From the NCBI GenBank assembly GCA_023129415.1, contig JAGMCF010000151.1, forward strand, positions 1,616-65,615: a stretch of DNA of 64,000 nucleotides, read 5' to 3'. This stretch comes from Candidatus Cloacimonadota bacterium. GTDB taxonomy: Bacteria > Cloacimonadota > Cloacimonadia > JGIOTU-2. Of this stretch, positions 46,102 to 59,761 are shown piece after piece. How positions within the stretch are numbered: the stretch's first letter is position 1; each line of letters opens with the position of its first letter. The notes under the pieces are model-generated. The model saw only the letters and a program-made list of their open reading frames with translations. It ran no database searches and was not told the origin of the DNA. The position numbers were made by a program, and so were the translations under genes.

Positions 46102-48054
46102 TTAGTCTTCCAATTCCTCAAACTTCTTTCTCCCCTTTTCAGTAATAAATCTATAATCACCTTTTCTAACTGTAATACCTTCGCTATCAAATTGTGTAAT
46201 CATCAAAAGGCATATTTTACGATTCCCACCTACCAAATCACGGAACTCCGAAACTTTTATACCCTCTTTATGCTCTGAAAGATACTTCAGTAATACATTT
46301 CTGCACTTATTTACAACTAAAGAATAAATAAAATTTCCCTCAATATTATATATTTTACCTTGATTCGTTAATAAGTTAAGAATCTGTTTTAACTTATTCT
46401 CATCAATATCTTGTGCTTTTGCTTGTGGAATCAATTCTGAAATTAGCGGAGTTTTCATTCCAGAATTTTGAATATAATCCTCTACAAAATCCACTTGCTT
46501 TTTATTTTCTGAAGAAAGAATCACATTATGAGATTTCAAAGCCCAGGTATGATGAACTTTCTTTAATTTATTCGAATCTATCATTTCTTCTAAAATCAGT
46601 TTCATCATATTTTCAGTTGTTGAATCACGGTTGATTCCAAACAAACCCATCAATTCCTCAAAGTTTCTGCCCCGTTCATCAAAGGGATTTCTTTTATGAA
46701 AAGTTTCTAAATTTCGTATAACTTTCTGTTCCAGCTTCTCTTTCTCCTTTTTGAGCATCAAATATCCCTTTTCCTTTGAAGAAATAACAACAATATCTTC
46801 AGGTAAAGATTTGGAAACAACTTCCTGGATATTCTGTTTGGGAATATTTAGAATATCTCCAATTTCCTGGTAACTAACAGGGATTAATCTTTTTCGCACT
46901 TCTGCGGCAATCAATTCAGATACTCCTCCTTCAGTTACTTTACGAAGTTCACTTATAAGTTTTTTAGTTCTACGACGATGGTGGAGAGGATGCGCATCAA
47001 TTATTTCACCTCCACCAAGAGTAATATCACAAGAACTACTTCGAATAACAAATCTATCTCCATATTTTGCAATACAAGGTGAATCAAGATGAATTTGAAC
47101 GATTGCTGTTTTCCCTGGTTCGAGCAGGTTTTTGTCTATAAAATGAATCCGAGCTTGAGCTTGATATGTACCCAAAAGGAAAACCGCTTGAGTCCAGATT
47201 TTAAAATTCCTATTATGTTGAAAAAGTGTAAGTTTTGCATCTATCATTGTTGTGGCTTGCAAAATCCTATCAGAAACACTCATACCTCTCTTAAAATCAT
47301 CCTTGTTCAAACCGACAAGATTTAAAGAAGCTCTATCCCCAGCAGTTATCTCCTCAACCTCATTACCATGACGTTCCATACGACGAATTCGTAATTTTTT
47401 CTCTACTGGTAAAAGATATACTGAATCCTTTTTCTTCAAATGCCCACTAATAACTGAACCATTTACTATCGTTCCAAAACCCTTTACACTAAAAATTCTA
47501 TCAATAAACATTCTGAATAGTTTACCAGTGTGTCTTTGTTCAACTTTGGAACACATTTCTTGTAAAAACTCTTTCAATTCACCGATACCTTCTCCCGTTT
47601 TTGCAGAAATTTTTATGACTGGGAAATCTTGCAGAAATGTTCCTTTTGTAAAATCTGAGATTTCTTCTTCAGCTATCTGGAGAATTTCTTCTTCAACAAG
47701 ATCAATTTTAGTTAAAGCAACAAATCCTTTTTTTACTCCGAGAATCTCCATAATTTTAAGATGTTCAACTGTCTGTGGCATTACTCCACTATCTGCAGCA
47801 ATTACAAGCATAACAAAATCAATACTGCTTACCCCAGCAACCATTGTGTTTACGAAATCCTTATGACCGGGAACATCTATGATACCTATACTATTTCCAC
47901 TTGGCAAATCAATATGAGCAAATCCGAGATTTATTGTTATTCCGCGTAGTTTTTCTTCTTTGTGAGTGTCGCAATCTATATTTGTTAATGACTTTATTAA
48001 AGCAGTTTTGCCATGGTCAATATGACCGGCAGTTCCCATTATTAGGTGTTTCAT
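46102..48054 (-). CDS. selB: Selenocysteine-specific elongation factor SelB
   Basis: GTPase motifs [17 protein letters not shown]. Long C-terminal winged-helix extension (650 aa). Adjacent to selA and tRNA-Sec. Confidence 0.9.
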   Translation of the reverse strand: MKHLIMGTAGHIDHGKTALIKSLTNIDCDTHKEEKLRGITINLGFAHIDLPSGNSIGIIDVPGHKDFVNTMVAGVSSIDFVMLVIAADSGVMPQTVEHLKIMEILGVKKGFVALTKIDLVEEEILQIAEEEISDFTKGTFLQDFPVIKISAKTGEGIGELKEFLQEMCSKVEQRHTGKLFRMFIDRIFSVKGFGTIVNGSVISGHLKKKDSVYLLPVEKKLRIRRMERHGNEVEEITAGDRASLNLVGLNKDDFKRGMSVSDRILQATTMIDAKLTLFQHNRNFKIWTQAVFLLGTYQAQARIHFIDKNLLEPGKTAIVQIHLDSPCIAKYGDRFVIRSSSCDITLGGGEIIDAHPLHHRRRTKKLISELRKVTEGGVSELIAAEVRKRLIPVSYQEIGDILNIPKQNIQEVVSKSLPEDIVVISSKEKGYLMLKKEKEKLEQKVIRNLETFHKRNPFDERGRNFEELMGLFGINRDSTTENMMKLILEEMIDSNKLKKVHHTWALKSHNVILSSENKKQVDFVEDYIQNSGMKTPLISELIPQAKAQDIDENKLKQILNLLTNQGKIYNIEGNFIYSLVVNKCRNVLLKYLSEHKEGIKVSEFRDLVGGNRKICLLMITQFDSEGITVRKGDYRFITEKGRKKFEELED

Positions 48055-48073
48055 AGATTTCTTTCAACCGCGA

Positions 48074-48420
48074 ATGTACGCTAATTTACGCAAATATTTT
48101 TTCTTTGCCACGAATTTACCCTGTGAAATCCTTCAAAGAAGGAATCCCGATATATCGGGATTATTTCACAGGGCAAGCACGAACTGGCACGAACATTTAT
48201 GTATCAATGTAAAAGGCATTTTTGTATTTCTTGTGATACATAATCTATATCACACTTCGCTGGTTCAAGTATGTTACTTGAACCGTTTATTTTAATTCTC
48301 CGGTTCAGATTGCAAATCTGAACCAGCATATAGATTTTAATTTTTGACCTCATCCCTAACCCTTCTCCTATGAGGAGAAGGGAACTAATCTCCCGCGTTT
48401 TAGGAGAAGATTAGTGCAAG
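48074..48420. repeat. selA-selB intergenic region filled by at least 6 hairpin modules
   Basis: ccctgtgaaat[ccttcaaagaagg][aatcccgatatatcgggatt]atttcacaggg, ggttcaagtatgttacttgaacc, ggttcagattgcaaatctgaacc, cccttctcctatgaggagaaggg, ctaatctcc..ggagaagattag. Frame gccacgaatttaccc...gggcaagcacgaactggcacgaaca is shared with 50468-50573. Confidence 0.8.
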
Positions 48421-48421
48421 G

Positions 48422-49822
48422 TTAATTCCTAACCATTTTTCGTGTAATTTCGTGTATTTCGCGGGCAATAAAATGAATATCCTCTTCAAAAATTGTTAAA
48501 ACATCAAAATGCAGATTTCCTTCCCGAAGAATTCCAAGTATTGGTCTTTCAAGTTTCAATAGGTTTTTAAAAACAGATTCAGCAAATTTTTTATAATTTT
48601 TTGGTGAGGTGAGCATTACAGAATAACTATCAATTTTGAGACGAGGAAGTGTTCCACCACCGCTATGTGCAGTGCTTTCAACAATTCTGGCTTTTACACT
48701 ATATTTTTTCAATTCTTCCAATAATTTTTGAGCTAGACTATGAAGTTCAATTTTAGTTCTTTTTAACATCATAAAAATTGGGATCTTTGATCGCAGCTCT
48801 TCTTCATTTATGTAATATTTTAAAACAGTTGATAGAGCTGCAATTGTCATTTTACCCACACGAAGAGCTCTCATTAATGGCGTTTTTGCAATTTTATTGA
48901 TCAATTCCTTTTTGCCTGCAACAATTCCTGCTTGGGGTCCGCCAAGTAATTTGTCACAGCTAAAAGTAATTAAATCGGTTCCAGCTTTCAAACTAGATTG
49001 AACATCTGGCTCATCTTTTAGCGGTAAACCTTCTGGCTTTCTCAAAAGTCCTGAACCAATATCATAGATCAAAATCAGATTATACTTTTTCGCAAGTTTA
49101 GAAAGCTCCCCTATCTCAACCTCTTCTGTAAATCCCTCGATGTAATAATTTGATTTATGTGCTTTTAAGATGATTGTTGTATCATCAGTTATTGCCTTTT
49201 CATAATCAGAAAGTCGTGTCCGATTTGTGGTGCCAACCTCAACCATTTTGGCTCCGCTTGCTTTCATAATTTCTGGAATGCGGAAAGAACCGCCGATTTC
49301 TATCAATTCACCACGAGAAATAATAGCTTCTTTATTTTCAGCAAAGGTTTTCAAACAAAGCAATACTCCTGCAGCATTATTATTCACAACAACAGCATCT
49401 TCTGCTTTTGTTACAAATTTAATCAGTTCAGAAATATGGGTGTTCCTATGACCTCGTTTGCCAGTTTCTAAATCAAACTCCAGATTTGAATATTCAGTAA
49501 TAATAGGCTCTAATTCTTTTAAAACAGCTTTTCCAAGAGGAGCTCTTCCTAAATTTGTATGTAGAACAATTCCTGTGGCATTAACCACAGGTTTCAAAGA
49601 TTTTTCAGATACTATAGAAATGTATGATAGAACTTTTTGAATGATTTGGTCAGTATCCCAGGCTTTTTCGCCTTGTAAAACCTTTGCTCTAATCTGCTCT
49701 AAAATTTGTCTGATTGCATAAGTCACTAATTCTAGACCAAATTTCTCTTTCAGTTTCAAAATTTCAGGTTGATTTAATAGTTTATCAACTCCAGGGATTC
49801 TTTTCAATTCTTCTTTCTGCAT
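48422..49822 (-). CDS. selA: L-seryl-tRNA(Sec) selenium transferase
   Basis: RIPGVDKLL N-terminus, NATGIVLHTNLGRAPL, FSCDKLLGGPQAG (PLP lysine). Confidence 0.95.
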   Translation of the reverse strand: MQKEELKRIPGVDKLLNQPEILKLKEKFGLELVTYAIRQILEQIRAKVLQGEKAWDTDQIIQKVLSYISIVSEKSLKPVVNATGIVLHTNLGRAPLGKAVLKELEPIITEYSNLEFDLETGKRGHRNTHISELIKFVTKAEDAVVVNNNAAGVLLCLKTFAENKEAIISRGELIEIGGSFRIPEIMKASGAKMVEVGTTNRTRLSDYEKAITDDTTIILKAHKSNYYIEGFTEEVEIGELSKLAKKYNLILIYDIGSGLLRKPEGLPLKDEPDVQSSLKAGTDLITFSCDKLLGGPQAGIVAGKKELINKIAKTPLMRALRVGKMTIAALSTVLKYYINEEELRSKIPIFMMLKRTKIELHSLAQKLLEELKKYSVKARIVESTAHSGGGTLPRLKIDSYSVMLTSPKNYKKFAESVFKNLLKLERPILGILREGNLHFDVLTIFEEDIHFIAREIHEITRKMVRN

Positions 49823-50651: not shown

Positions 50652-52361
50652 TCATGATCCTTTCAGGCTCGGCGCCCAGACGGGTGTGTCCCGATTTGTT
50701 TTCGGGACAAGAACAACATAAGTTGGCAGTCCAAGCACTCCAAAATAATCAAGAATTTCTTTCGTTGGAGATTCGTTTAGATTTTCTGCTTTATATTTCA
50801 CCCAGACATAGTTTTCAAGTTTTTCAACAACTTCATCATCCTTAAAAGTCGTAGCATCCATTACCAAACAGTTTTTACACCATGTAGCCCAGAAATCAAT
50901 CATTACAGGTTTTCCTTCTTTTTTTGCTTTTTCAAGTCCTTGAGAAAAAGAATATATCCATGGAAGAGTTGATGTTTCTTCTGCGACTTTAATTTGCTCT
51001 ACAGACTTTAATCTGCTGTGAAATATCTTTACTCCTGTATAACCATAATAAATTGCTATAACAAAAATAATAACACCAAAAATATATTTAATCCAGTCCA
51101 TCCAATTTCCTGGTTTAGGAAGGAATGAAAGACCAGCACCAGCAAATGGCCAGGGGATTGCCATTCCTGCTCCAAGTAAAAATGGTAGCAATAGTCCTGC
51201 TGAATTTCCTTTGGCATAAAGCGTTGTGGAATACAGAATGACAGAAATTAGGACAGGGGCGACACATGCTCCTGCAAGAACAGCAGCAATAACACCCAAT
51301 ACAAAAACGGTTATAAATTTTCCTCTACTTTTTCCTTGTATATTACCACTTCTAAATTTTGAGAAATCAATTGGAATGATATCAAACATAGCCAGTGCAA
51401 GAAGCACAAAGATTACCGCAATAATAATATTAAACCAAGGAGAAGCATTAATGGCACCAAATTTTGAGCCCGTTAAAACCACGATAACCCCAAGCGCTCC
51501 ATAGGCTAAAGTCATACCAAGTCCATAGGTCCCGCCAATTAAAAATCCCCTACCTTTTGATTCTGATTGGGTGCCAGCCCCAAGCACAGCGATTGTAATA
51601 GGTATCATTGGAAGAACACAGGGAGTAAGATTAAGTGCTATCCCTCCAATCAAAATCAGTAGAACAACTAACCAAATACTTTTCCCGGTAAATGTATTAG
51701 AATTAAAATCATTTGAACTTTCCGCCTGATCTAAAAAGGCGATAAATTCATTACTTTTTTGATATCCTCCGGTGACACCTGCAATAACAAAATCATCTAA
51801 TAATTTTTTAATTTCATTAAACTCATAGTCTGAAGTAATATGCTTTGTGGAAATTATTTCCTTTAGAGAAGCAATACTATCTTCTTTGTTAATACTGCCA
51901 ATGGTAACAGGTAATACCAATTCAACCTCTTCAGGAAAAAGGCACAGACCAGCATCATCACAAAATTGATAGCCAGCCACAACTTTTATTTCGTAAAAGC
52001 CATGCTTAACCTTTTTACTAACAGTAAAATCTCTTATTAAGGTAACCTTATGATGATAAGTTATTACTCCATCTTTATCTTTTTCTCCTACTGGATAAAC
52101 AGTGGACTTAAATGAAATTCCATCTATTTTATCAACTTCAATAAAAAAATAATCCTTTTCCAGAAGTTGATGATGTCCTGGAGGAATTAAAAAATTAACA
52201 CTAATTTGTCCTTTTTGTCCTATTTTGATTGTTTCAGGTTCAATTTTTCCTGAAACAACTTGTTCTTCTGCAGAAATCTTCACAACAGAAAATATAAAAA
52301 GAATTGCGATGAGTATAATATAGTTTCTTTTTTGTGTCATCGTGCCCATTTTCTTCATCAT
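50652..52361 (-). CDS. DsbD-like thiol:disulfide interchange protein (CcdA-type membrane core plus C-terminal thioredoxin domain)
   Basis: Signal peptide, LNLTPCVLPMIPITI (DsbD/CcdA transmembrane Cys motif), C-terminal FWATWCKNC thioredoxin motif. The last ~17 codons (VPKTNRDTPVWAPSLKGS) lie in a repeat module. Confidence 0.8.
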   Translation of the reverse strand: MMKKMGTMTQKRNYIILIAILFIFSVVKISAEEQVVSGKIEPETIKIGQKGQISVNFLIPPGHHQLLEKDYFFIEVDKIDGISFKSTVYPVGEKDKDGVITYHHKVTLIRDFTVSKKVKHGFYEIKVVAGYQFCDDAGLCLFPEEVELVLPVTIGSINKEDSIASLKEIISTKHITSDYEFNEIKKLLDDFVIAGVTGGYQKSNEFIAFLDQAESSNDFNSNTFTGKSIWLVVLLILIGGIALNLTPCVLPMIPITIAVLGAGTQSESKGRGFLIGGTYGLGMTLAYGALGVIVVLTGSKFGAINASPWFNIIIAVIFVLLALAMFDIIPIDFSKFRSGNIQGKSRGKFITVFVLGVIAAVLAGACVAPVLISVILYSTTLYAKGNSAGLLLPFLLGAGMAIPWPFAGAGLSFLPKPGNWMDWIKYIFGVIIFVIAIYYGYTGVKIFHSRLKSVEQIKVAEETSTLPWIYSFSQGLEKAKKEGKPVMIDFWATWCKNCLVMDATTFKDDEVVEKLENYVWVKYKAENLNESPTKEILDYFGVLGLPTYVVLVPKTNRDTPVWAPSLKGS

Positions 52362-52411
52362 TTTTTAATTAAAAAATATGGGGTAATGAAACTGATATTC
52401 CTTTTTGGAAG

Positions 52412-52445
52412 TCAACAAAAAGGCGGAATATTTCTATTCCGCCCC
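52412..52445 (-). terminator. Rho-independent terminator of the YVTN-repeat gene
   Basis: Minus strand reads ggcggaatagaaatattccgcc followed by tttttgttg. Confidence 0.8.
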
Positions 52446-52712
52446 TTGTTACCCTTGCGAAGGTTTAGAACCTTCGCAAGGTTCTTTGTTTCCAATCTTA
52501 ATTATCTTATCAAAATTTATTATACGACCTGTCCTTCGTAGTCTTGACGAAGGAGGAAGCACCACTTCGTCCTGATGATCCCCAATTCCTGAGCTCGTCA
52601 GGAACGGGCTTAATCGGGGAGGGACTTCGTAGTGTAAACTTTTCTGAACTCCATAGTTTTAACGAAGGAGTTAGCGAAGGAGAATTTATCCTCCGAAGCC
52701 TTAGCGAAGGAG
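52446..52712 (-). repeat. Conserved 3'UTR backbone with 4 extra hairpin modules (paralogue of 56633-56782)
   Basis: 59 nt (52469-52527) are identical to 56671-56729. Extra modules at about 52528-52557, 52573-52621 and 52644-52671. A 12-bp direct repeat ttagcgaaggag (52671-52682 and 52701-52712) flanks an 18-nt spacer. Confidence 0.85.
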
Positions 52713-55286
52713 GATCATTTTCTTGATTTGAGACTTAAAGTTCGTGGTTTCTATCTGATAGAAATAGATTCCGGACGATAGCTTTTTGCCACTCTCATCT
52801 TGTCCATTCCAGGCTACAGAATGTTTGCCAACGGTTTCTCTACTATGAACCAACTTCTTTACTAATTGTCCTCGTAGATTATAGATATTAAGGATAATTT
52901 TCCCGGGTTTTTGCAATTGGTAGGAAATGATTGTTTCAGATCTTAACGGGTTGGGATAGTTTTGTCCAAGTTTCGCTACAGGAGGCTGACCACTGTATGG
53001 CTCTTCTACACTAACAACGAAACTGTCTGTGATTACCGAAATGTTGCTAGAATATGGATTAGCAATGTAAACACTGTTTTGAAACTCGTTCCATATTCCA
53101 GCATCTGGTCCTATGCCCACAGGAATGGTAGCAACAACCTCATTAGTTCCTCCATCAATAATGGTGACATCGTTACTCCACCAGTTACCACAATAGACCT
53201 TGTTGTTAATAGAGTTCCAGAGCAAGAAATCTGGCATAGCTCCAACTGAAATAGTAGTAATCACCTCGTCCGTCTCACCATTGATAACAGTGATGTCATC
53301 ACTAAAATCGTTTGCACAGTATATTTTATTATCTATAGAGTTCCAGACCAGGTCCCATGGCATGTCACCTGCAGGAACAGTAGTAATAACTATATCACTT
53401 GCACCATCAATTATAGTGACATCGTTACTTAACTGGTTAGCACAGTAAACCTTATCGTTGGTAGAGTTCCAGCAAAGAGCTTGAGGCCCTGTCCCCGCTG
53501 GGATAGTAGCGATAACCGCATTTGTCTGACCGTCAATAACAGTGAGATTATCAGTAAATATATTCGCATGATACACCTTATTGTCGGTCTGATTCCAACA
53601 CAAGACACCCCATGATTCATCAGGCAAAGGCACGGAAGCAATAATTGCGTTACTCACTCCGTCAATGATATCTACCGCATATCCTTGACAACCACAGTAA
53701 ACCTTATTATTGATCGAATTCCAGCAAAAACCTTGGGGTCCCCATGTTACTGGGATTGTGGTGATAATGTTATTAGTTTGTCCATCAATGATGGTTACAT
53801 TGTCACCCCAGTAATTTGAGCAGTATATTTTGTTGTTAATGGAGTTCCAGATAAGAGCCCAAGGGGTCTCTCCTACTGGGATATTAGTAATAACCTGATT
53901 AGATTCTCCATCAATCACAGTAACGCTATTGCTCATCTGATTTGCTGAATAGACCTTGTTGTTGGTGGAGTTCCAAGTAAGTGCGCGAGGTTCATCCCCT
54001 ACCTGGATGGTGGAGACCAACCCGTTTGTCTCACCATTGATAATTGCTACCTTGGCACCATTGTGATCCACACAGTAAATTTCATTTTCTATGAGGTTCC
54101 AAGCCATATCCTGAATATTGGTACCAATTGAAAGTGTAGTGATGACTTCATCTGTCTCTCCATCAATGATGGTGACACTCTGACCTGTATAGCCGTTTGC
54201 ACCACAGTAAACTTTATTGTTAACCTGATTGCAACACATATCACGTGAATAGGAACATACAAGTGGAATAGTAGTAAGTACGGTATTTGTCTCTCCATCA
54301 ATGATAGTGATACTGGGCGATGACTGATTGGACGAATACACCTTGTTGCTCACAGGATTCCAGATGATCCAGAGCGGCTTATCTCCTACAGAAATAGTAG
54401 TAATCACTGTATTTGTCTCTCCATCTATAATAGTAATATTATCACTTCCACAGTTTGCACAGTAGATCTTATTGTTAGTTTCATTCCAGCAAAGGCGACT
54501 GGGGTTAGTGCCAGCTGGAATATTAGTGATGACCTGATTCGTTATTCCATCAATGACCGTCACAGTTCCATTTTCCCAGTTAGCACAATAGACATTATTG
54601 TTAGTTGAGTTCCAGACAATACCGTAAGGATTGCCACCGACTGCAATCTCCGTAATAATTGTATCCGTTTCACCATCAATCACGGTTACAGTGCCGCTAT
54701 AGAAATTAGCTGCATAGACCTTATTCTCGGTCTGATTCAGAGTTAGCTCGTAGGGCTGATCTCCCACAGGTAAAGTAGTAATAATTGTATCTGCCACACC
54801 GTCAATGATAACCACATTAGCACTGTAGTACATATCACTTGAGCAATAGATCTTGTTATTGATAGGGTTCCATATTATACTCCAGCAAACTCCATTAAAT
54901 GGAATTAGTTTGGTCCTTTGATGAGTGGCTCCACCAAAGACAATAACGCCTTCTTGAGAATCGTAATAGCCACCTCCACCAACATAGATCTTATTGTTGG
55001 CATTACAAGTAACACTTCTAGGACCATACATACCGCCCAGACTATCTGGCAAAGTAATGGTTGTTTCAAGCCATTGTCTTGGTGTATATCCATCACGTAT
55101 TCTATCCTTACTCTCGAATACCTCAAACTCGTTAGTAAATGCTGACATCCCTTGCTCGAGCTTAATCTTAACACCTGGTTCCAGCAATTTGCCGGAATAT
55201 TCCCGAGGCTTTTTCACCTCGTTAGCCGAAAGCCCAAAGCCCACAAAAAGTAGGATGGACATAGTTATTAGCATTGCTTTTTTCAT
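52701..55286 (-). CDS. YVTN-family beta-propeller repeat protein with T9SS-type C-terminal sorting domain
   Basis: Start at MKKAMLITMSILLFVGFG (AAGGAG RBS). About 16 repeats of VTVIDG-TN-VITTIPVG--P--L-WN--NNKVYCAN. C-terminus NYPNPL...IYNLRGQLV...GIYFYQIET. The track start at 55397 is rejected. Confidence 0.8.
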   Translation of the reverse strand: MKKAMLITMSILLFVGFGLSANEVKKPREYSGKLLEPGVKIKLEQGMSAFTNEFEVFESKDRIRDGYTPRQWLETTITLPDSLGGMYGPRSVTCNANNKIYVGGGGYYDSQEGVIVFGGATHQRTKLIPFNGVCWSIIWNPINNKIYCSSDMYYSANVVIIDGVADTIITTLPVGDQPYELTLNQTENKVYAANFYSGTVTVIDGETDTIITEIAVGGNPYGIVWNSTNNNVYCANWENGTVTVIDGITNQVITNIPAGTNPSRLCWNETNNKIYCANCGSDNITIIDGETNTVITTISVGDKPLWIIWNPVSNKVYSSNQSSPSITIIDGETNTVLTTIPLVCSYSRDMCCNQVNNKVYCGANGYTGQSVTIIDGETDEVITTLSIGTNIQDMAWNLIENEIYCVDHNGAKVAIINGETNGLVSTIQVGDEPRALTWNSTNNKVYSANQMSNSVTVIDGESNQVITNIPVGETPWALIWNSINNKIYCSNYWGDNVTIIDGQTNNIITTIPVTWGPQGFCWNSINNKVYCGCQGYAVDIIDGVSNAIIASVPLPDESWGVLCWNQTDNKVYHANIFTDNLTVIDGQTNAVIATIPAGTGPQALCWNSTNDKVYCANQLSNDVTIIDGASDIVITTVPAGDMPWDLVWNSIDNKIYCANDFSDDITVINGETDEVITTISVGAMPDFLLWNSINNKVYCGNWWSNDVTIIDGGTNEVVATIPVGIGPDAGIWNEFQNSVYIANPYSSNISVITDSFVVSVEEPYSGQPPVAKLGQNYPNPLRSETIISYQLQKPGKIILNIYNLRGQLVKKLVHSRETVGKHSVAWNGQDESGKKLSSGIYFYQIETTNFKSQIKKMILLR

Positions 55287-55453
55287 CTTAACTCCTTTAT
55301 TCCGCCAGTTAACTGCGGAATTTTTTCTCTTTTTTCGATTAACATAATAATGAGCACTTCTCAATAGAAGTATCTCTCCTATTTTAGACATTAACATTCC
55401 GACATTTTCCCCAATAAAAATAAGTGTCTAAAAACAAAATCAGATACACATTT

Positions 55454-56317
55454 TTATTGTATTCTATCTCTATCAAAGGTTTCCAAAGGATCCACCTTTG
55501 GCGGAGATTCTTCGTATTTAATCTTAAACTCTTTAAAAGGCATTGCTTTTTCCCAAACACTCTCAAATACATACTTTTGTGCCTTTGCAAAACCAGCATG
55601 GTTTATAATAATAGTTGTTATGCTGGGTTTTAAGGAAACAGGATCGTTCAAAGCAAACATTGTTATTTTCTCATCAAATATAACCATTTTCATTGGCAAT
55701 TCTTCTACTATTCTTGCCTTTTCACCAGCAGAAATCCAGAAAGATATTACCTTCAGAAATTCTTCTTTTATAGTATCCTTATATTCATAGATACCCCTGA
55801 TATTTACTTTTCTCTTTAGAACCTCAATTTCTGCATTCATATCCTTAGTAACTGGAGTAGTGTATGGTGCTTTTGTGAAAGCAAAAATTTCTGTCTTTGC
55901 TTTCCTAAACTGGTAGAGCCATCTTTTATGAATCTGTTTTTTATCTTTAAGAACTTCAATGTATTCTAAAGGATTGTCATCTGTTTCTCTTTCTTTATAT
56001 AAAGGTGAAAGAATCTTCAATACATTATTGGCTATATTTTCTTTTTCTTCCAAATCCTTTAATAATCTATCAAAAACAGAAACAGGGTTCACAGCCTCAT
56101 ACTTTTTATAATGTCCAATTTTTTTTTCTGTACACATCCCTTTACTAATTAACTGATGCAATACCTCATAAACCTTGGTTCTTGGTATATCTACGAGCTG
56201 CTGAATTTCAGAAGCGGTAAAATCCTTTTTGCGAAATAGGGTGGTATATACCTTTGCCTCACGCATTGATAAACCAAAGTTAGTTATAAGTTTTTCTACT
56301 TCTTTTAGGTCTTTCAT
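55454..56317 (-). CDS. TrmB-family transcriptional regulator
   Basis: LSMREAKVYTTLFRKKDFTASEIQQLVDIPRTKVYEVLHQLISKGMC winged-helix region plus a TrmB-type C-terminal domain. Confidence 0.8.
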   Translation of the reverse strand: MKDLKEVEKLITNFGLSMREAKVYTTLFRKKDFTASEIQQLVDIPRTKVYEVLHQLISKGMCTEKKIGHYKKYEAVNPVSVFDRLLKDLEEKENIANNVLKILSPLYKERETDDNPLEYIEVLKDKKQIHKRWLYQFRKAKTEIFAFTKAPYTTPVTKDMNAEIEVLKRKVNIRGIYEYKDTIKEEFLKVISFWISAGEKARIVEELPMKMVIFDEKITMFALNDPVSLKPSITTIIINHAGFAKAQKYVFESVWEKAMPFKEFKIKYEESPPKVDPLETFDRDRIQ

Positions 56318-56597
56318 TTTTTGTTACCCTTTTGGGTGTAATTAAATTTTATAAAAATTTTCTTTGTCAAGAAAAATTTTATTTTTTGAAAAAAGTTATC
56401 TGGCTTCAAGGCTTTTTATACACTTAACTGACGCAATAGGCGTAAGTTAGAAATAAAGTATTGTAATGAGAATTTATAAAAAAATCTTATCCATTTATTT
56501 GTGTGGAACTGATTAGCTTTACATCTTTTAGCTTAACCTTCTAATTTTTCTTTGTTAGACTCTCCAACAAAATGTTAAAATTGTTTATAAATAGTTC

Positions 56598-56632
56598 ATA
56601 AAAACGAAAGGCGGAATATTGCTATTCCGCCC
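56598..56632 (-). terminator. Rho-independent terminator of the FG-GAP gene
   Basis: Minus strand reads ggcggaatagcaatattccgcc followed by tttcgttttt. Near-identical to the 52412-52445 terminator. Confidence 0.8.
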
Positions 56633-56782
56633 CTTGTTACCCTTGCGAATCCCCAATTAAATTGGGGATCAAACCTTCGCAAGGTTCTTTGTTTCCAATC
56701 TTAATTATCTTATCAAAATTTATTATACGAAGCACCACTTTGTCCCGAATATAGGGACTTCGTAGTGTAAACTTTAGCGAAG
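56633..56782 (-). repeat. Conserved 3'UTR backbone (paralogue of 52446-52712) with one private hairpin insertion
   Basis: Private module tccccaattaaattggggatca (56649-56670) sits in the loop of ccttgcgaa..ttcgcaagg. The small hairpin gtcccgaatatagggac sits where the other copy has a 49-nt nested structure. Confidence 0.85.
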
Positions 56783-59761
56783 TATAATCATTTTCCTAAT
56801 TTCTGATTTGAAATTCTTAGTTTCGAGTTGATAGAAATATACACCATTTGACACCAATTTTCCAGAAAAATCTTTTCCGTTCCAATATATGGAGTAGCCC
56901 CGATGTATCGGGGCTATTGTGGAGAGAGACTCTCCACACTCCAAAGTTTTCACTAATTGCCCCTTGATGTTATAAATCTTTATCTGCCGTGATCCGTGTA
57001 AATCTGTGGCTAAATTAAATGAGATCGTAGTATATATGCTGAAAGGATTAGGATAATTCTGTAAAATAATTGAATTTTTCACTTTTGTTGATTGCTCATC
57101 CACACCAACTATTGCATCAAGTCCTCCTGAATAGCAATATACCCAGCCATTTCTACCACCAACCACCATTTCCATTGAACCATCACAAGCAATATCTGGG
57201 ATTGCTGCAATAGCATCAACAGGTGTTCCAACATATATTGACTCCAATTCTGAGCCATTTACTCCATTAAGGAAATAAGCATAATTATTTGAGTAAAGAG
57301 TTCCAACAACCAAATCATTAATTCCATCTCCACTTACATCAGCAATTCTTGAAGCATTCCACGGTTGGTCTGCAACTGGATGATTCCAAATTTGATTTCC
57401 ACTATATCCATCAACTACAAGAGCATTATGAAAACCGCTATGTGCAATAACAAAATCTGAATAGCCATCACCGTTTACATCATCTAATTTGTCCAATCTA
57501 AGTATGATGGCTGTTCCAATGTAACCATTATAGATTTCATCTCCATTTGTTGGATCAATAAAATAATAATGCCCACTAAAGTCACCGGAAATAATATCCT
57601 TAATTCTATCTCCATTGACATCATCTAACTGTGCTAATGCCCAGACAGAGGAACCAGGAGTATCAAATGACCAGAATATAGTACCAGTTTCTCCATTAAT
57701 ACCATAGGCATAACCTATGGTTTCATATTCATTAGAAGCACCAGCCAATACATCTGGTTGTCCGTCACCTGTGCAGTCTTCAATTCCAATTACAGAGAAA
57801 CCGGGTCCACCTAATGGGCATTCCCAAATTGATAATCCAGTTAAACCATCAAGACAATATATTCTTTTTGGACCTGTATCGCTTGCATCATCACCAGTAG
57901 AAGCCAAAACATCAAGAACACCATCACTGTTATAATCGTATTTACAATTAACCTGATAGACCCAGCCACCGCTTCCATATTCGTGTGTATCATGTGTCCA
58001 TATAGTTTCTCCCGTTTTTCCAGAAAGTGTATGTATTGAACGGTCACCACCTGTAGTGCCTACAACTACATCTTTATAGGAATCACTATCTACATCTTGT
58101 GTAATAAATAAACCACGATGTGAAAAGATATTTCCTGAATATATTTCTTTCTCCCAAAGAATATCTGCATAACCAGAAGAATTTCCATTAAAGCAACGAA
58201 TATAATTATCTTCTGAACAGATAATTACATCATCAATATCATCATAATTAATATCGGAAATATGTTCAATTGCTTTGGGACTATTATCCCAGCTCGTTGT
58301 TATTTGATATTGCCATAAAGTCTCACCAATTTCATAATCAGAATCATCACCTGTTCCTTCTAAAGTTACTTCAACAGGATCTTTTCCAGGATCATTACTT
58401 ACGATAAACAATGTTCCTTCATATAAAATAGCTTCTTCAGGATTAAACCAGATACCAATTTGGACAGTATCAAGGACATTTATATTTATTGGAAAACTTA
58501 CATCAGAATCCACAATAAAGTGAGTATCATCACAGTAAATACTATCTATCACTAATGTGGAATCTCCAATGTTTTGAATCTCCATAAACCAGCGAGTTAT
58601 TGCATTGATTCTCACTAAACCGTAATTATGGCTTGTTACGGGTACATAAATACTTGGTCCCGGATTAACTGCATTTCCTGTAAGAGTAATATCAACTTCT
58701 ATGTGTAATGGGTCATTAGATTGTATTGTTGCAATTGCGTTTAAAGGTTCAGGATTTATTGGTGTATATATAAAAGGTATTTCTTCTTGATTTCCAGGAT
58801 TGATAGTTATTGGAAATTCAAGGGGGCAGGTAACACAAATATTGTATCCTGTGAAGTAGACATTATCAATCACTAAATCTGCAGTGCCGATATTTTCAGC
58901 AATTGCATTCCAGGTTGCAGAATCTCCGATAGTTACAGTTCCAAAGTTATGATTTGTAATTGGAACATAGATCTCTGGTGTTCCACCTCCTCCTAAATCA
59001 ATCTTGTAAAGAAAGTCAACATCATAACCTTCTCCATTATCACAATACCAGAGATATTGTCCATCAAATACAATACCTGCGGGATCAACACCTTCTGAGG
59101 GGTATGTCTCTAAAAGAGTTCCATTTGAAGCATCAATCATATAAAGCGCATCTCCCCAGTAGTCAGCCATCCATAGATTGTCGTATTCAATACATAGATC
59201 CCATGGTTGATTATCCGGTGCTGGAAATTGAGTAAAAATATTTCCCAGGGTATCAACCTTATAGATCTCACCATTAGGATCGTAATAGGCAGCAACCCAG
59301 AAATCTCCCTCATCATAAGCAATGCCGGACATATAGTGAGTTGGAAGATCAAATTGTGAAATTAAGTTACCGCTCATATCAAGTTGCATAGCAACAGCTG
59401 GAATTGAACTGCTTCCCGGATGATCGGTTGTCCAGAGATATGAGCCATCATAGGTAAGCCCAAAAGCATCTCCTTGGGGTCCTGTAAATAGTAGAGAATA
59501 ACTTCCATCGCTCGGGTCAATCTGGTATATTCTACCTCCATCTGCGCCATAGATTCCACAGTAAAGATTTGTGCCATCATAAGCAAGTCCGGAAGCACTT
59601 TCTGGAATGGGGTAAGTTGCTACAATCGTCCAATCACGATTTTTTAAACTATTATTTTCAAATTCATTTGCTTGAAGATTATTTGAAGAGCTCGCTAATA
59701 CAAATGTTGGTAATATTAACAAGGTAAGAAATAAGCCAATCATTTTACTTTTTTTCATCAT
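56774..59761 (-). CDS. Large secreted protein: N-terminal propeller-like region, two Ig-like (HYDIN/ASH-type) domains, FG-GAP/VCBS repeats, T9SS-type C-terminal sorting domain
   Basis: Signal peptide. Repeated HNFGTVTIGD...GTADLVIDNVYF and HNYGLVRIN...GDSTLVIDSIYC. FG-GAP-like DVNGDGYSDFVIA, DVSGDGINDLVVG, DCTGDGQPDVLAG. C-terminus NYPNPF...IYNIKGQLV...GVYFYQLET. Confidence 0.75.
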   Translation of the reverse strand: MMKKSKMIGLFLTLLILPTFVLASSSNNLQANEFENNSLKNRDWTIVATYPIPESASGLAYDGTNLYCGIYGADGGRIYQIDPSDGSYSLLFTGPQGDAFGLTYDGSYLWTTDHPGSSSIPAVAMQLDMSGNLISQFDLPTHYMSGIAYDEGDFWVAAYYDPNGEIYKVDTLGNIFTQFPAPDNQPWDLCIEYDNLWMADYWGDALYMIDASNGTLLETYPSEGVDPAGIVFDGQYLWYCDNGEGYDVDFLYKIDLGGGGTPEIYVPITNHNFGTVTIGDSATWNAIAENIGTADLVIDNVYFTGYNICVTCPLEFPITINPGNQEEIPFIYTPINPEPLNAIATIQSNDPLHIEVDITLTGNAVNPGPSIYVPVTSHNYGLVRINAITRWFMEIQNIGDSTLVIDSIYCDDTHFIVDSDVSFPININVLDTVQIGIWFNPEEAILYEGTLFIVSNDPGKDPVEVTLEGTGDDSDYEIGETLWQYQITTSWDNSPKAIEHISDINYDDIDDVIICSEDNYIRCFNGNSSGYADILWEKEIYSGNIFSHRGLFITQDVDSDSYKDVVVGTTGGDRSIHTLSGKTGETIWTHDTHEYGSGGWVYQVNCKYDYNSDGVLDVLASTGDDASDTGPKRIYCLDGLTGLSIWECPLGGPGFSVIGIEDCTGDGQPDVLAGASNEYETIGYAYGINGETGTIFWSFDTPGSSVWALAQLDDVNGDRIKDIISGDFSGHYYFIDPTNGDEIYNGYIGTAIILRLDKLDDVNGDGYSDFVIAHSGFHNALVVDGYSGNQIWNHPVADQPWNASRIADVSGDGINDLVVGTLYSNNYAYFLNGVNGSELESIYVGTPVDAIAAIPDIACDGSMEMVVGGRNGWVYCYSGGLDAIVGVDEQSTKVKNSIILQNYPNPFSIYTTISFNLATDLHGSRQIKIYNIKGQLVKTLECGESLSTIAPIHRGYSIYWNGKDFSGKLVSNGVYFYQLETKNFKSEIRKMIILR

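Follow-up and report, generated by a model that had tools for sequence, protein, structure and literature searches.

The 64,000-nt stretch of DNA analyzed here (the window) is taken from contig JAGMCF010000151.1 (positions 1,616 to 65,615, forward strand) of a Candidatus Cloacimonadota genome (assembly GCA_023129415.1), a draft of 3.46 Mb with 32% G+C and an assembly contamination of 7% that is referred to below as G000. The window encodes two cargo proteins of the type IX secretion system (T9SS), designated gene 52 and gene 56, which share a non-coding tail downstream of their stop codons (loci 52 and 56). In both proteins the sorting domain occupies the extreme C-terminus, as is characteristic of T9SS type A. 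The Por_Secre_tail family PF18962 matches gene 52 with 31 bits (cut-off 27) and gene 56 with 24 bits over residues 903-993, below the cut-off; despite this sub-threshold score, the tail of gene 56 matches the C-terminal domain (CTD) profile built for the genome itself, which identifies 179 open reading frames (ORFs) at their C-terminus, genes 52 and 56 included. The two proteins are similar only in the sorting domain (51% identity over 95 aa), their cargo parts being unrelated folds, and the nucleotide similarity between their coding tails is no greater than that of either to other CTD paralogues of G000. Both loci were compared with relatives of this genome, among them the congener G002, a member of another genus (G006), a member of another family (G021) and a metagenome contig (L154). 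Orthologues of gene 56 are present in many Cloacimonadota; for gene 52, a search of 10 relatives yielded no full orthologue and none with a usable 3' end.

Alignment of the regions downstream of the two stop codons recovered the common backbone that had been described in the initial annotation, with 133 of 135 ungapped bases identical (98.5%). The last 111 coding bases agree at 77 positions (69%), so that the sorting-domain codons are, as had been claimed, more diverged than the 3' untranslated region (3'UTR), and at the 77% identity seen in the last ~66 coding bases the probability of obtaining 133 matches in 135 positions by chance is about 4e-13. The backbone includes a block of 59 identical nucleotides, located at 52469-52527 as originally reported and at 56672-56730, one base away from the position first given for the second copy (56671-56729). 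Five hairpin-sized insertions or deletions separate the two tails, and all five had been correctly recognized: four are extra modules at locus 52, one of them nested in the GTCC..GGAC loop, and one is a private module of locus 56. In RNA folding the modules of the tails each form a separate hairpin, and the z-scores relative to shuffled sequences are -6.2 and -6.8. The near-identical tract ends sharply, upstream at the coding end and downstream immediately after the terminator, and no homology between the two loci was found beyond that terminator. The parts of both tails are listed in Table 1.

Table 1. Coordinates in the window of the two T9SS-cargo genes and of the parts of their tails. Empty cells: no entry.
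Feature	Position (strand)	Description	Basis
Gene 56, T9SS cargo	56774-59761 (-)	995 aa; FG-GAP/PQQ-type propeller, Ig-like domain, C-terminal sorting domain	ORF, Pfam
New coding end of gene 56, ATG ATT ATA CTT CGC TAA	56774-56791 (-)	ATTATAC serves as 5' arm X, TTCGCTAA as first half of core loop	
AGTTTACAC...GTGGTGCT hairpin module, in core loop	56731-56773 (-)	Outer stem CACTAC/GTGGTG, 3x3 internal loop, inner stem GTCCC/GGGAC	Alignment, consensus fold
59-nt block	56672-56730 (-)	CTTCG-side bases, 3' arm X' (GTATAAT), AAAT, fossil gene end, native 3'UTR, first 13 nt of repeat hairpin	
Fossil coding end TTG ATA AGA TAA (L I R stop)	56705-56716 (-)		Aligned to functional orthologue ends
CTTGCGAA/TTCGCAAG repeat hairpin	56641-56684 (-)	Nested private CCCCAATTTAATTGGGG at 56651-56667	
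Native intrinsic terminator GGGGCGGAATAGCAATATTCCGCC + T-run	56600-56633 (-)	Same position in G001, G002, G006, G021, L154	Terminator scan
Gene 52, T9SS cargo	52701-55397 (-)	898 aa; YNCE-like beta-propeller, C-terminal sorting domain	ORF; Pfam PF21783, PF18962
Coding end of gene 52, ATG ATC CTC CTT CGC TAA	52701-52718 (-)	5' arm ATCCTCC and loop start of core unit	
30-nt unit GGCTTCG-GAGGAT-AA-ATTCTCC-TTCGCTAA	52671-52700 (-)	Remainder of first core unit and older stacked end (I L L R stop)	
Second core-type unit CTCC-TTCGTTAA-AACTAT-GGAGTT-CAGAA	52642-52670 (-)	Also after CTD genes on contigs C2 and C251 and in G006	
AGTTTACAC hairpin module	52558-52641 (-)	40-nt CCCCGATT...AATTGGGG element (52580-52619) nested in GTCCC/GGGAC loop	
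30-nt CCTTCGT/ACGAAGG hairpin TCCTCCTTCGTCAAGACTACGAAGGACAGG	52528-52557 (-)	Missing at locus 56; weak dispersed matches; opposite orientation in G022 (L050)	
Copy of 59-nt block	52469-52527 (-)	X' arm GTATAAT without ATTATAC partner here	
Plain CTTGCGAA/TTCGCAAG repeat hairpin	52453-52481 (-)		
Copy of gene-56 terminator GGGGCGGAATAGAAATATTCCGCC + T-run	52417-52445 (-)	Similarity to locus 56 stops here	

A conserved tail behind less conserved coding ends could in principle be the residue of an old tandem duplication, in which the 3' parts of both genes were once identical and the coding part then diverged fast as the tail stayed the same. The two genes are indeed neighbors with the same orientation and a common sorting domain. 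Their unrelated cargo folds, however, do not fit such a history, their sorting domains are no closer to each other than to those of other paralogues, and an identity of 98.5% in non-coding sequence against 69% in constrained coding sequence is the opposite of the normal order of rates. The step in identity at the stop codon contradicts a common descent of the two 3' parts, and the orthologues place the tail at gene 56 only. We consider this explanation very improbable.

The orthologues of gene 56 also point to the origin of the 59-nt block. In G001, G006, G021 and L154 the gene ends in ...AAA ATG GTT TTA ATA AGA TAA and is followed by a 21-nt spacer, the terminator GGCGGAATAGAAATATTCCGCC and the same downstream synteny as at locus 56; the present coding end of gene 56 is not found in G001, G006 or G021, and some 30 further Cloacimonadota orthologues show a plain end (...KM[VL]LIR-stop or similar) and then a simple terminator. 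Among the orthologues compared, an insert in the gene end is carried only by G000 and the congener G002, where it begins with ATT ATA CTT CGC TAA (a new I-I-L-R-stop), finishes with GTATAAT-AAAT and is followed by ..TTG/GTG ATA AGA TAA and the old UTR. The TTG ATA AGA TAA of the block aligns to TTA ATA AGA TAA in G001 and G006 and to TTG ATC AGA TAA in G021. Judged by these alignments, the 59-nt block is mostly the former end of gene 56 (L-I-R-stop) together with its former 3'UTR, that is, a fossil. Similar remnants occur elsewhere, since an ATAAA-prefixed L-[MI]-[RK]-stop lies downstream of 15 of the 179 CTD genes versus 2 of 1581 control ORFs. In the 30-nt form of the inserted element, which is described below, the fossil is preceded by two TAA codons and keeps the reading frame; behind gene 56 of G002, whose insert measures 41-44 nt, it is out of frame. 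Stop-codon reassignment was considered and dropped, because R/K-stop is the normal sorting-domain end in all orthologues. An independent origin of the fossils from different paralogues would explain the variety of their codons without any translation, so that neither a programmed bypass nor a read-through of the hairpin-enclosed stop into the downstream L-[MI]-R-stop codons need be invoked.

Fossil and terminator likewise bear on the relationship between the two tails. The terminator GGCGGAATA...TATTCCGCC and the fossil end are orthologous, single-copy sequence at locus 56, in synteny with G001, G002, G006, G021 and L154, and within G000 they occur at loci 52 and 56 only. A terminator scan called the GGCGGAATA hairpin with its T-run at 56607-56634, the only hairpin of the tail recognized as an intrinsic terminator, and did not call the copy at locus 52. 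Scanning of metagenomes returned no match to the 59-nt block and, for the terminator, only empty-site orthologues and unrelated hairpins. The suggestion that the block might follow other CTD genes applies to its surroundings, the core loop and the AGTTTACAC hairpin, which do follow such genes; the block itself follows none. Furthermore, the GTATAAT arm contained in both copies of the block pairs with ATTATAC of gene 56, and gene 52 has ATCCTCC at that position. Because the terminator and the fossil are orthologous at locus 56, because similarity ends at the edges of the tract, and because GTATAAT finds its partner only in gene 56, a recent copy of ~170 nt from locus 56 to locus 52 is indicated, and the first and the last of these features show the direction of the transfer. 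The pattern is that of a segmental copy: a near-identical, sharp-edged tract in diverged paralogues, with a donor fixed by synteny in four other genomes. We therefore interpret the shared tail as a mosaic, composed of a core palindromic element, a fossil coding end with its old 3'UTR, hairpins resembling repetitive extragenic palindromic (REP) sequences and a native terminator, that was recently copied from gene 56 to gene 52, and we assign a probability of roughly 0.7 to this interpretation. Of the possibilities raised in the initial annotation, a recent spread or conversion of the cassette is thus the one borne out.

The insert at the end of gene 56 belongs to a family of short palindromes, termed here the core element. 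Its minimal form spans 30 nt and reads X-TTCGYTAA-RR-CTTCG-X'-AA, after which the word X appears again; the loop is filled either by RR or by the AGTTTACAC hairpin. The core pattern CTTCGYTAARRCTTCG was found in 10, 2, 7, 5 and 5 copies in G000, G001, G002, G006 and G022, respectively, and in none of 18 other relatives, and the reversed pattern was not found. Most copies lie on the last codons of CTD genes, where they read ..LLR-stop-NFxx-stop-IL[MI]R-stop, six lie on the 3' ends of tRNA-Ser genes with the CCA within the stem, one lies antisense on the 5' end of a tRNA-Gln gene, and a few are located elsewhere, for instance near tmRNA. Since the arm and the loop of the element read I-[I/L]-L-R-stop, the host gene retains a normal sorting-domain end, with its stop codon placed inside the hairpin loop, as it is in gene 56. 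The view that the downstream LLR-stop pieces are simple tandem duplications of the coding end is weakened by the TTCGYTAA words that also follow tRNA genes, from which it follows that the element gave rise to the coding end and was not itself derived from it. Genes bearing the core are scattered on a CTD tree, with 10 changes for 13 genes versus 12-13 in most shuffles (the tree is built on ~89 residues and is noisy), and their cargo parts are unrelated; hence, the element has spread among genes and was not inherited through gene duplication. In one orthologous CTD gene (contigs C16 of G000, C51 of G002 and C40 of G001) the same fossil is preserved and the loop filler varies: one genome has AA there, one has two units and one has the AGTTTACAC module. 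This module, AGTTTACAC...GTGCTTCG, lies in the core loop in every clear copy, and all clear copies follow CTD or tRNA genes. The hairpin it forms has two stems separated by a 3x3 internal loop; 2 of its 10 pairs show compensatory changes, and its G-U pairs are strand-specific. A covariance model of it (R1) detects 13 copies in G000 and 15 in five relatives, exclusively in core-bearing lineages.

Two groups of core copies deserve separate mention. On contig C99 (23000-24100; L038, 700-1800), arrays of core hairpins of the form GCCATAC-TTCGYTAAARCTTC-GTATGGC-AA, with up to two 71-nt units carrying the AGTTTACAC module, lie behind each of two tRNA-Ser genes; the tRNA-Ser copies are conserved in G002, and the tRNA-Gln gene with the core element antisense against its 5' end lies at the same locus. 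In G002, two tandem 30-nt core units are located at the end of a CTD gene (C51:108-153 and C25:5-20) with a contig break within the repeat, and this tandem state may be real or may reflect an ambiguity of the assembly.

The loop of the core element is constant and its stems are copy-specific: on average, 6.2 of 7 pairs form when both arms come from one copy, and 5.0 when they come from different copies (permutation p < 0.0002). The arms X and X' vary among copies and in many of them the X word is repeated after X'-AA, a pattern that departs from that of a miniature inverted-repeat transposable element (MITE), and no parent insertion sequence was found. Integron attC sites, dif/Xer sites, target hairpins of diversity-generating retroelements, group II introns and IS110-type mini-elements were also weighed on anatomical grounds and set aside; they misfit in size, in the pattern of arm and loop conservation or through the absence of the associated genes. 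It is conceivable, though we hold it only tentatively, that X-CTTCGYTAARRCTTCG-X'-AA-X represents an undescribed kind of element that lands on gene 3' ends and writes inverted and direct copies of a target word around a constant loop, by target-templated (fold-back) insertion or as a 3'-end RNA signal recognized through its loop, which cells would have spread through a single gene family. On another reading, the core hairpin would be a purpose-built 3'-end signal read via its conserved 16-nt loop, be it an RNA element that marks where sorting-domain mRNAs and tRNA-Ser precursors end or a mobile element, templated by its target, that writes X-loop-X'-AA-X there, with the shared tail as a by-product. 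The conserved loop with varying and covarying stems, the exact position at gene ends, where the loop holds the stop codon and the stem holds the tRNA CCA, the inverted and direct repetition of the target word, the sense orientation of most copies and the persistence of the core at orthologous tRNA-Ser genes in two species (L053, L058, L065) all agree with such a signal. All arms, however, are variants of a single theme, RYCMTAC, so that descent of the arms with compensatory change is possible, and the first-codon positions of X vary without compensation. A few core copies are antisense or away from gene ends, no partner protein was identified, and the core is absent from most of the family. 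On balance, a purpose-built signal appears unlikely.

The remaining modules of the tails are dispersed repeats. YCCCRAT...ATYGGGR hairpins number 335 in G000, including CCCCAATTNAATTGGGG (36), the CTTGCGAA hairpins number 15 together with 19 of a variant, and the CCCCAATT hairpins occur in tens of copies, compared to 0-1 in reversed-sequence controls. The tail modules are therefore imperfect palindromes of 20-40 nt present in tens to hundreds of copies, as REPs are. Several of them recur as nested composites: the CTTGCGAA hairpin with nested CCCCAATTTAATTGGGG is found at no fewer than 7 other sites with 90-98% identity, the CTTGCGAA hairpin with nested CCCCAATT recurs as a ready-made unit (C92 and C117 are among the composite sites), and the GTCCC hairpin with nested CCCCGATT is also present on C219, C5 and C276. 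The CTTGCGAA/TTCGCAAG hairpin of locus 56 is in none of the orthologues. The genome further harbors 12 genes resembling Y1 transposases (PF01797; contigs C11, C105 with two copies, C113, C255, C129, C205, C202, C45, C50 and C89), each flanked by its own, different hairpin family. For one genome, this is an unusually large and diverse set of genes resembling REP-associated tyrosine transposases (RAYTs).

At locus 52, the two units that follow the stop codon together span 52642-52700, and the arrangement of the first recurs on contig C2 with 92.5% identity over 80 nt. The R1 score of the AGTTTACAC module at this locus is reduced owing to its nested insert. The corresponding region of contig C2 (C2:5100-5344) comprises the end of a CTD gene and the first two units as at locus 52, and beyond GTCCCGATTCAT the sequence becomes G+C-rich and no longer resembles other parts of this genome, so that the contig end may be chimeric.

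The interpretation favored here implies the following sequence of events. A small palindromic element would have entered the last codons of gene 56 and supplied I-I-L-R-stop, displacing the old L-I-R-stop end and its 3'UTR downstream as a fossil. Dispersed REP-like hairpins of the CTTGCGAA, YCCCRAT/CCCCAATT and CCTTCGT types would then have inserted into the UTR and into the loops of other hairpins. The finished tail of locus 56, from the coding end through the native terminator, would have been copied over a distance of 4.2 kb to locus 52, whose gene encodes a different cargo but a similar sorting domain, and later gains or swaps of hairpins would account for the five differences. The CTTCGCTAA coding end that both genes share may have been the site of the copy, through ectopic recombination or template switching. 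As for the hairpin modules, they would be selfish or neutral DNA that moves either through microhomology or along a route specific to hairpins (a Y1/HUH-type enzyme), and would at most modulate the stability of the mRNA 3' end.

Several observations weigh against this account or limit it. As there is no homology downstream of the terminator, the event was not a simple two-sided gene conversion, and since composites exist elsewhere (C219; C92, C117) some of the differences between the tails may be swaps of repeat copies and not insertions in place. The timing of the copy rests on two paralogous copies in one assembly of the species. Target-site duplications around the 335 YCCCRAT hairpins are not above chance, and no transposase was found linked to the core element or to these hairpins: the flanks of the 12 Y1 genes contain no core, AGTTTACAC, CTTGCGAA or YCCCRAT hairpin, and a CCCCAATT hairpin only once, nested in the flank hairpin on C255. 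Lastly, the native 21-nt spacer and terminator are probably under constraint and part of the tail is probably functional, because across species they are more conserved (47 of 47 positions identical between G001 and G002, 46 of 47 between G001 and G006) than the coding end (83% between G001 and G002).

This last point is an argument for the alternative that the backbone is a functional 3'UTR under selection, which might act as a stabilizer, as a localization signal for T9SS-cargo mRNAs or as the source of a small RNA ending at the GGCGGAATA terminator. Conservation of the terminator hairpin even in G021, a member of another family, the far better folding of the tail than of shuffled sequence and the strand specificity that G-U pairs confer on the AGTTTACAC hairpin all speak for it. 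Yet the block is restricted in G000 to two loci and is found behind no further CTD gene, the disabled coding end at its core can be explained without an RNA function, and the insertion of whole hairpins is tolerated. The copies of the block in G000 and G002 share 88% identity, with 5 gap positions, a value close to that of the coding end (83%), and a scan of 52300-56900 against Rfam yielded chance-level matches only. Since the block is as diverged between these two genomes as the coding end, with insertions and deletions, and has accepted a repeat insertion, selection is not needed to explain its identity within G000. The functional 3'UTR proposed in the initial annotation as a cause of the conservation is accordingly plausible for the native spacer and terminator; as an explanation for the whole block, it is not supported, and we judge selection on the entire backbone to be quite unlikely.

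Additional features were noted in and around gene 56. Its cargo part (residues 1 to ~884, without the sorting domain) has relatives of ~60% identity in metagenome-assembled genomes labeled as Thermoplasmatota archaea, Planctomycetota and others (L076, L078, L080, L082, L083, L085, L088, L090 and other loci), which suggests either wide horizontal spread or binning errors. Within the gene, a loop of the sorting domain (56885-56940) contains the palindromes GTGGAGAG..CTCTCCAC and AGCCCCGAT..ATCGGGGCT in frame; the same loop holds a different palindrome in G001 and GAACTCC-type tandem repeats in G002 and G006, and because different repeats occupy it in these genomes it can be regarded as a repeat hotspot. 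Between the gene for a TrmB-like regulator (55454-56317) and the terminator of gene 56, the intergenic sequence (56318-56600) aligns to G001 and G006 with few differences and may contain a conserved promoter, leader or RNA. Elsewhere in the window (46102-49822), selB and selA lie just downstream of a dsbD-like gene, and the genome therefore encodes machinery for selenocysteine insertion.

For comparative genomics, these results call for caution, as what looks like an ultra-conserved 3'UTR may turn out to consist of selfish hairpins and a fossil coding end, copied together as a cassette, instead of a regulatory RNA. They also illustrate that tiny palindromic elements can rewrite the ends of genes for secreted proteins in an uncultured phylum without destroying the sorting signal, leaving a readable fossil by which the event can be dated. 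The turnover of repeats may be rapid, given five hairpin gains or losses versus two point changes in 135 nt between the copies. The tail is mainly ordinary selfish-repeat biology, its unusual part being the element that replaces gene ends, and if the core element does target gene ends by a mechanism of its own, this would constitute a new, tool-like principle.

Among known systems, ectopic gene conversion or 3'-end exchange within multigene families offers a close parallel for the copied tract, which is sharply bounded, near-identical and shared by close but diverged paralogues with a donor identifiable by synteny; it differs in that homology is present upstream only (the CTD end and the CTTCGCTAA word) and in that the tract ends at the terminator hairpin. 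The palindromic elements of Rickettsia, 100-150 bp long, are found in frame within ORFs, contain no stop codon, are translated through and are tolerated in permissive parts of proteins, unlike the core element, which measures 30 nt and ends the reading frame. In E. coli, according to what Liang, Rudd and Deutscher reportedly found in 2015, REPs within ~15 nt of a stop codon stall terminating ribosomes; by analogy, the stable hairpin at or after the stop codon could here lower protein output or trigger tmRNA tagging, with the difference that the stop codon lies inside the loop and not upstream of the hairpin. The REPIN-RAYT systems, said to have been set out by Bertels and Rainey in 2011, provide a general frame for short palindromic repeats. 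The tail modules resemble REPs and REPINs in being short, imperfect, mostly intergenic palindromes of many copies, with G-T pairs in their stems and copies that supply stop codons, and in residing in a genome with many Y1-transposase genes flanked by their own hairpins. They are nonetheless not those that flank any of the 12 Y1 genes, for which reason they are not confirmed as REPINs. Moreover, the core appears to lack the constant GTAG/CGTC tag of REPs (some AGTTTACAC modules have CGTAG before the inner stem and others CGAAG, and the core loop has no such tag), its conserved loop and variable stems are the reverse of the REP pattern, the elements are nested in one another's loops, and the host belongs to the Cloacimonadota. 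REP copies that run into the end of a coding sequence and provide its stop codon have been described, as have copies within ORFs (Di Nocera et al. 2013, PMC3733652). The QMITE1 and QMITE2 elements of Coxiella burnetii are small, palindromic and non-autonomous; wherever they have inserted into a functional gene, the site is at the 3' end, and there they replace the C-terminus or supply the stop with little change in protein size (Wachter et al. 2018, PMC5896051). The core element likewise sits at the 3' end of genes and supplies the stop; QMITEs, in contrast, are larger, possess terminal inverted repeats and have no family-specific target, whereas the core prefers the ends of T9SS sorting domains and of tRNA-Ser genes and leaves a readable fossil of the old end. 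What sets the present system apart from all of these is its constant loop with variable stems, its preference for the end of one protein family and for tRNA-Ser ends, and its modules without a linked transposase.

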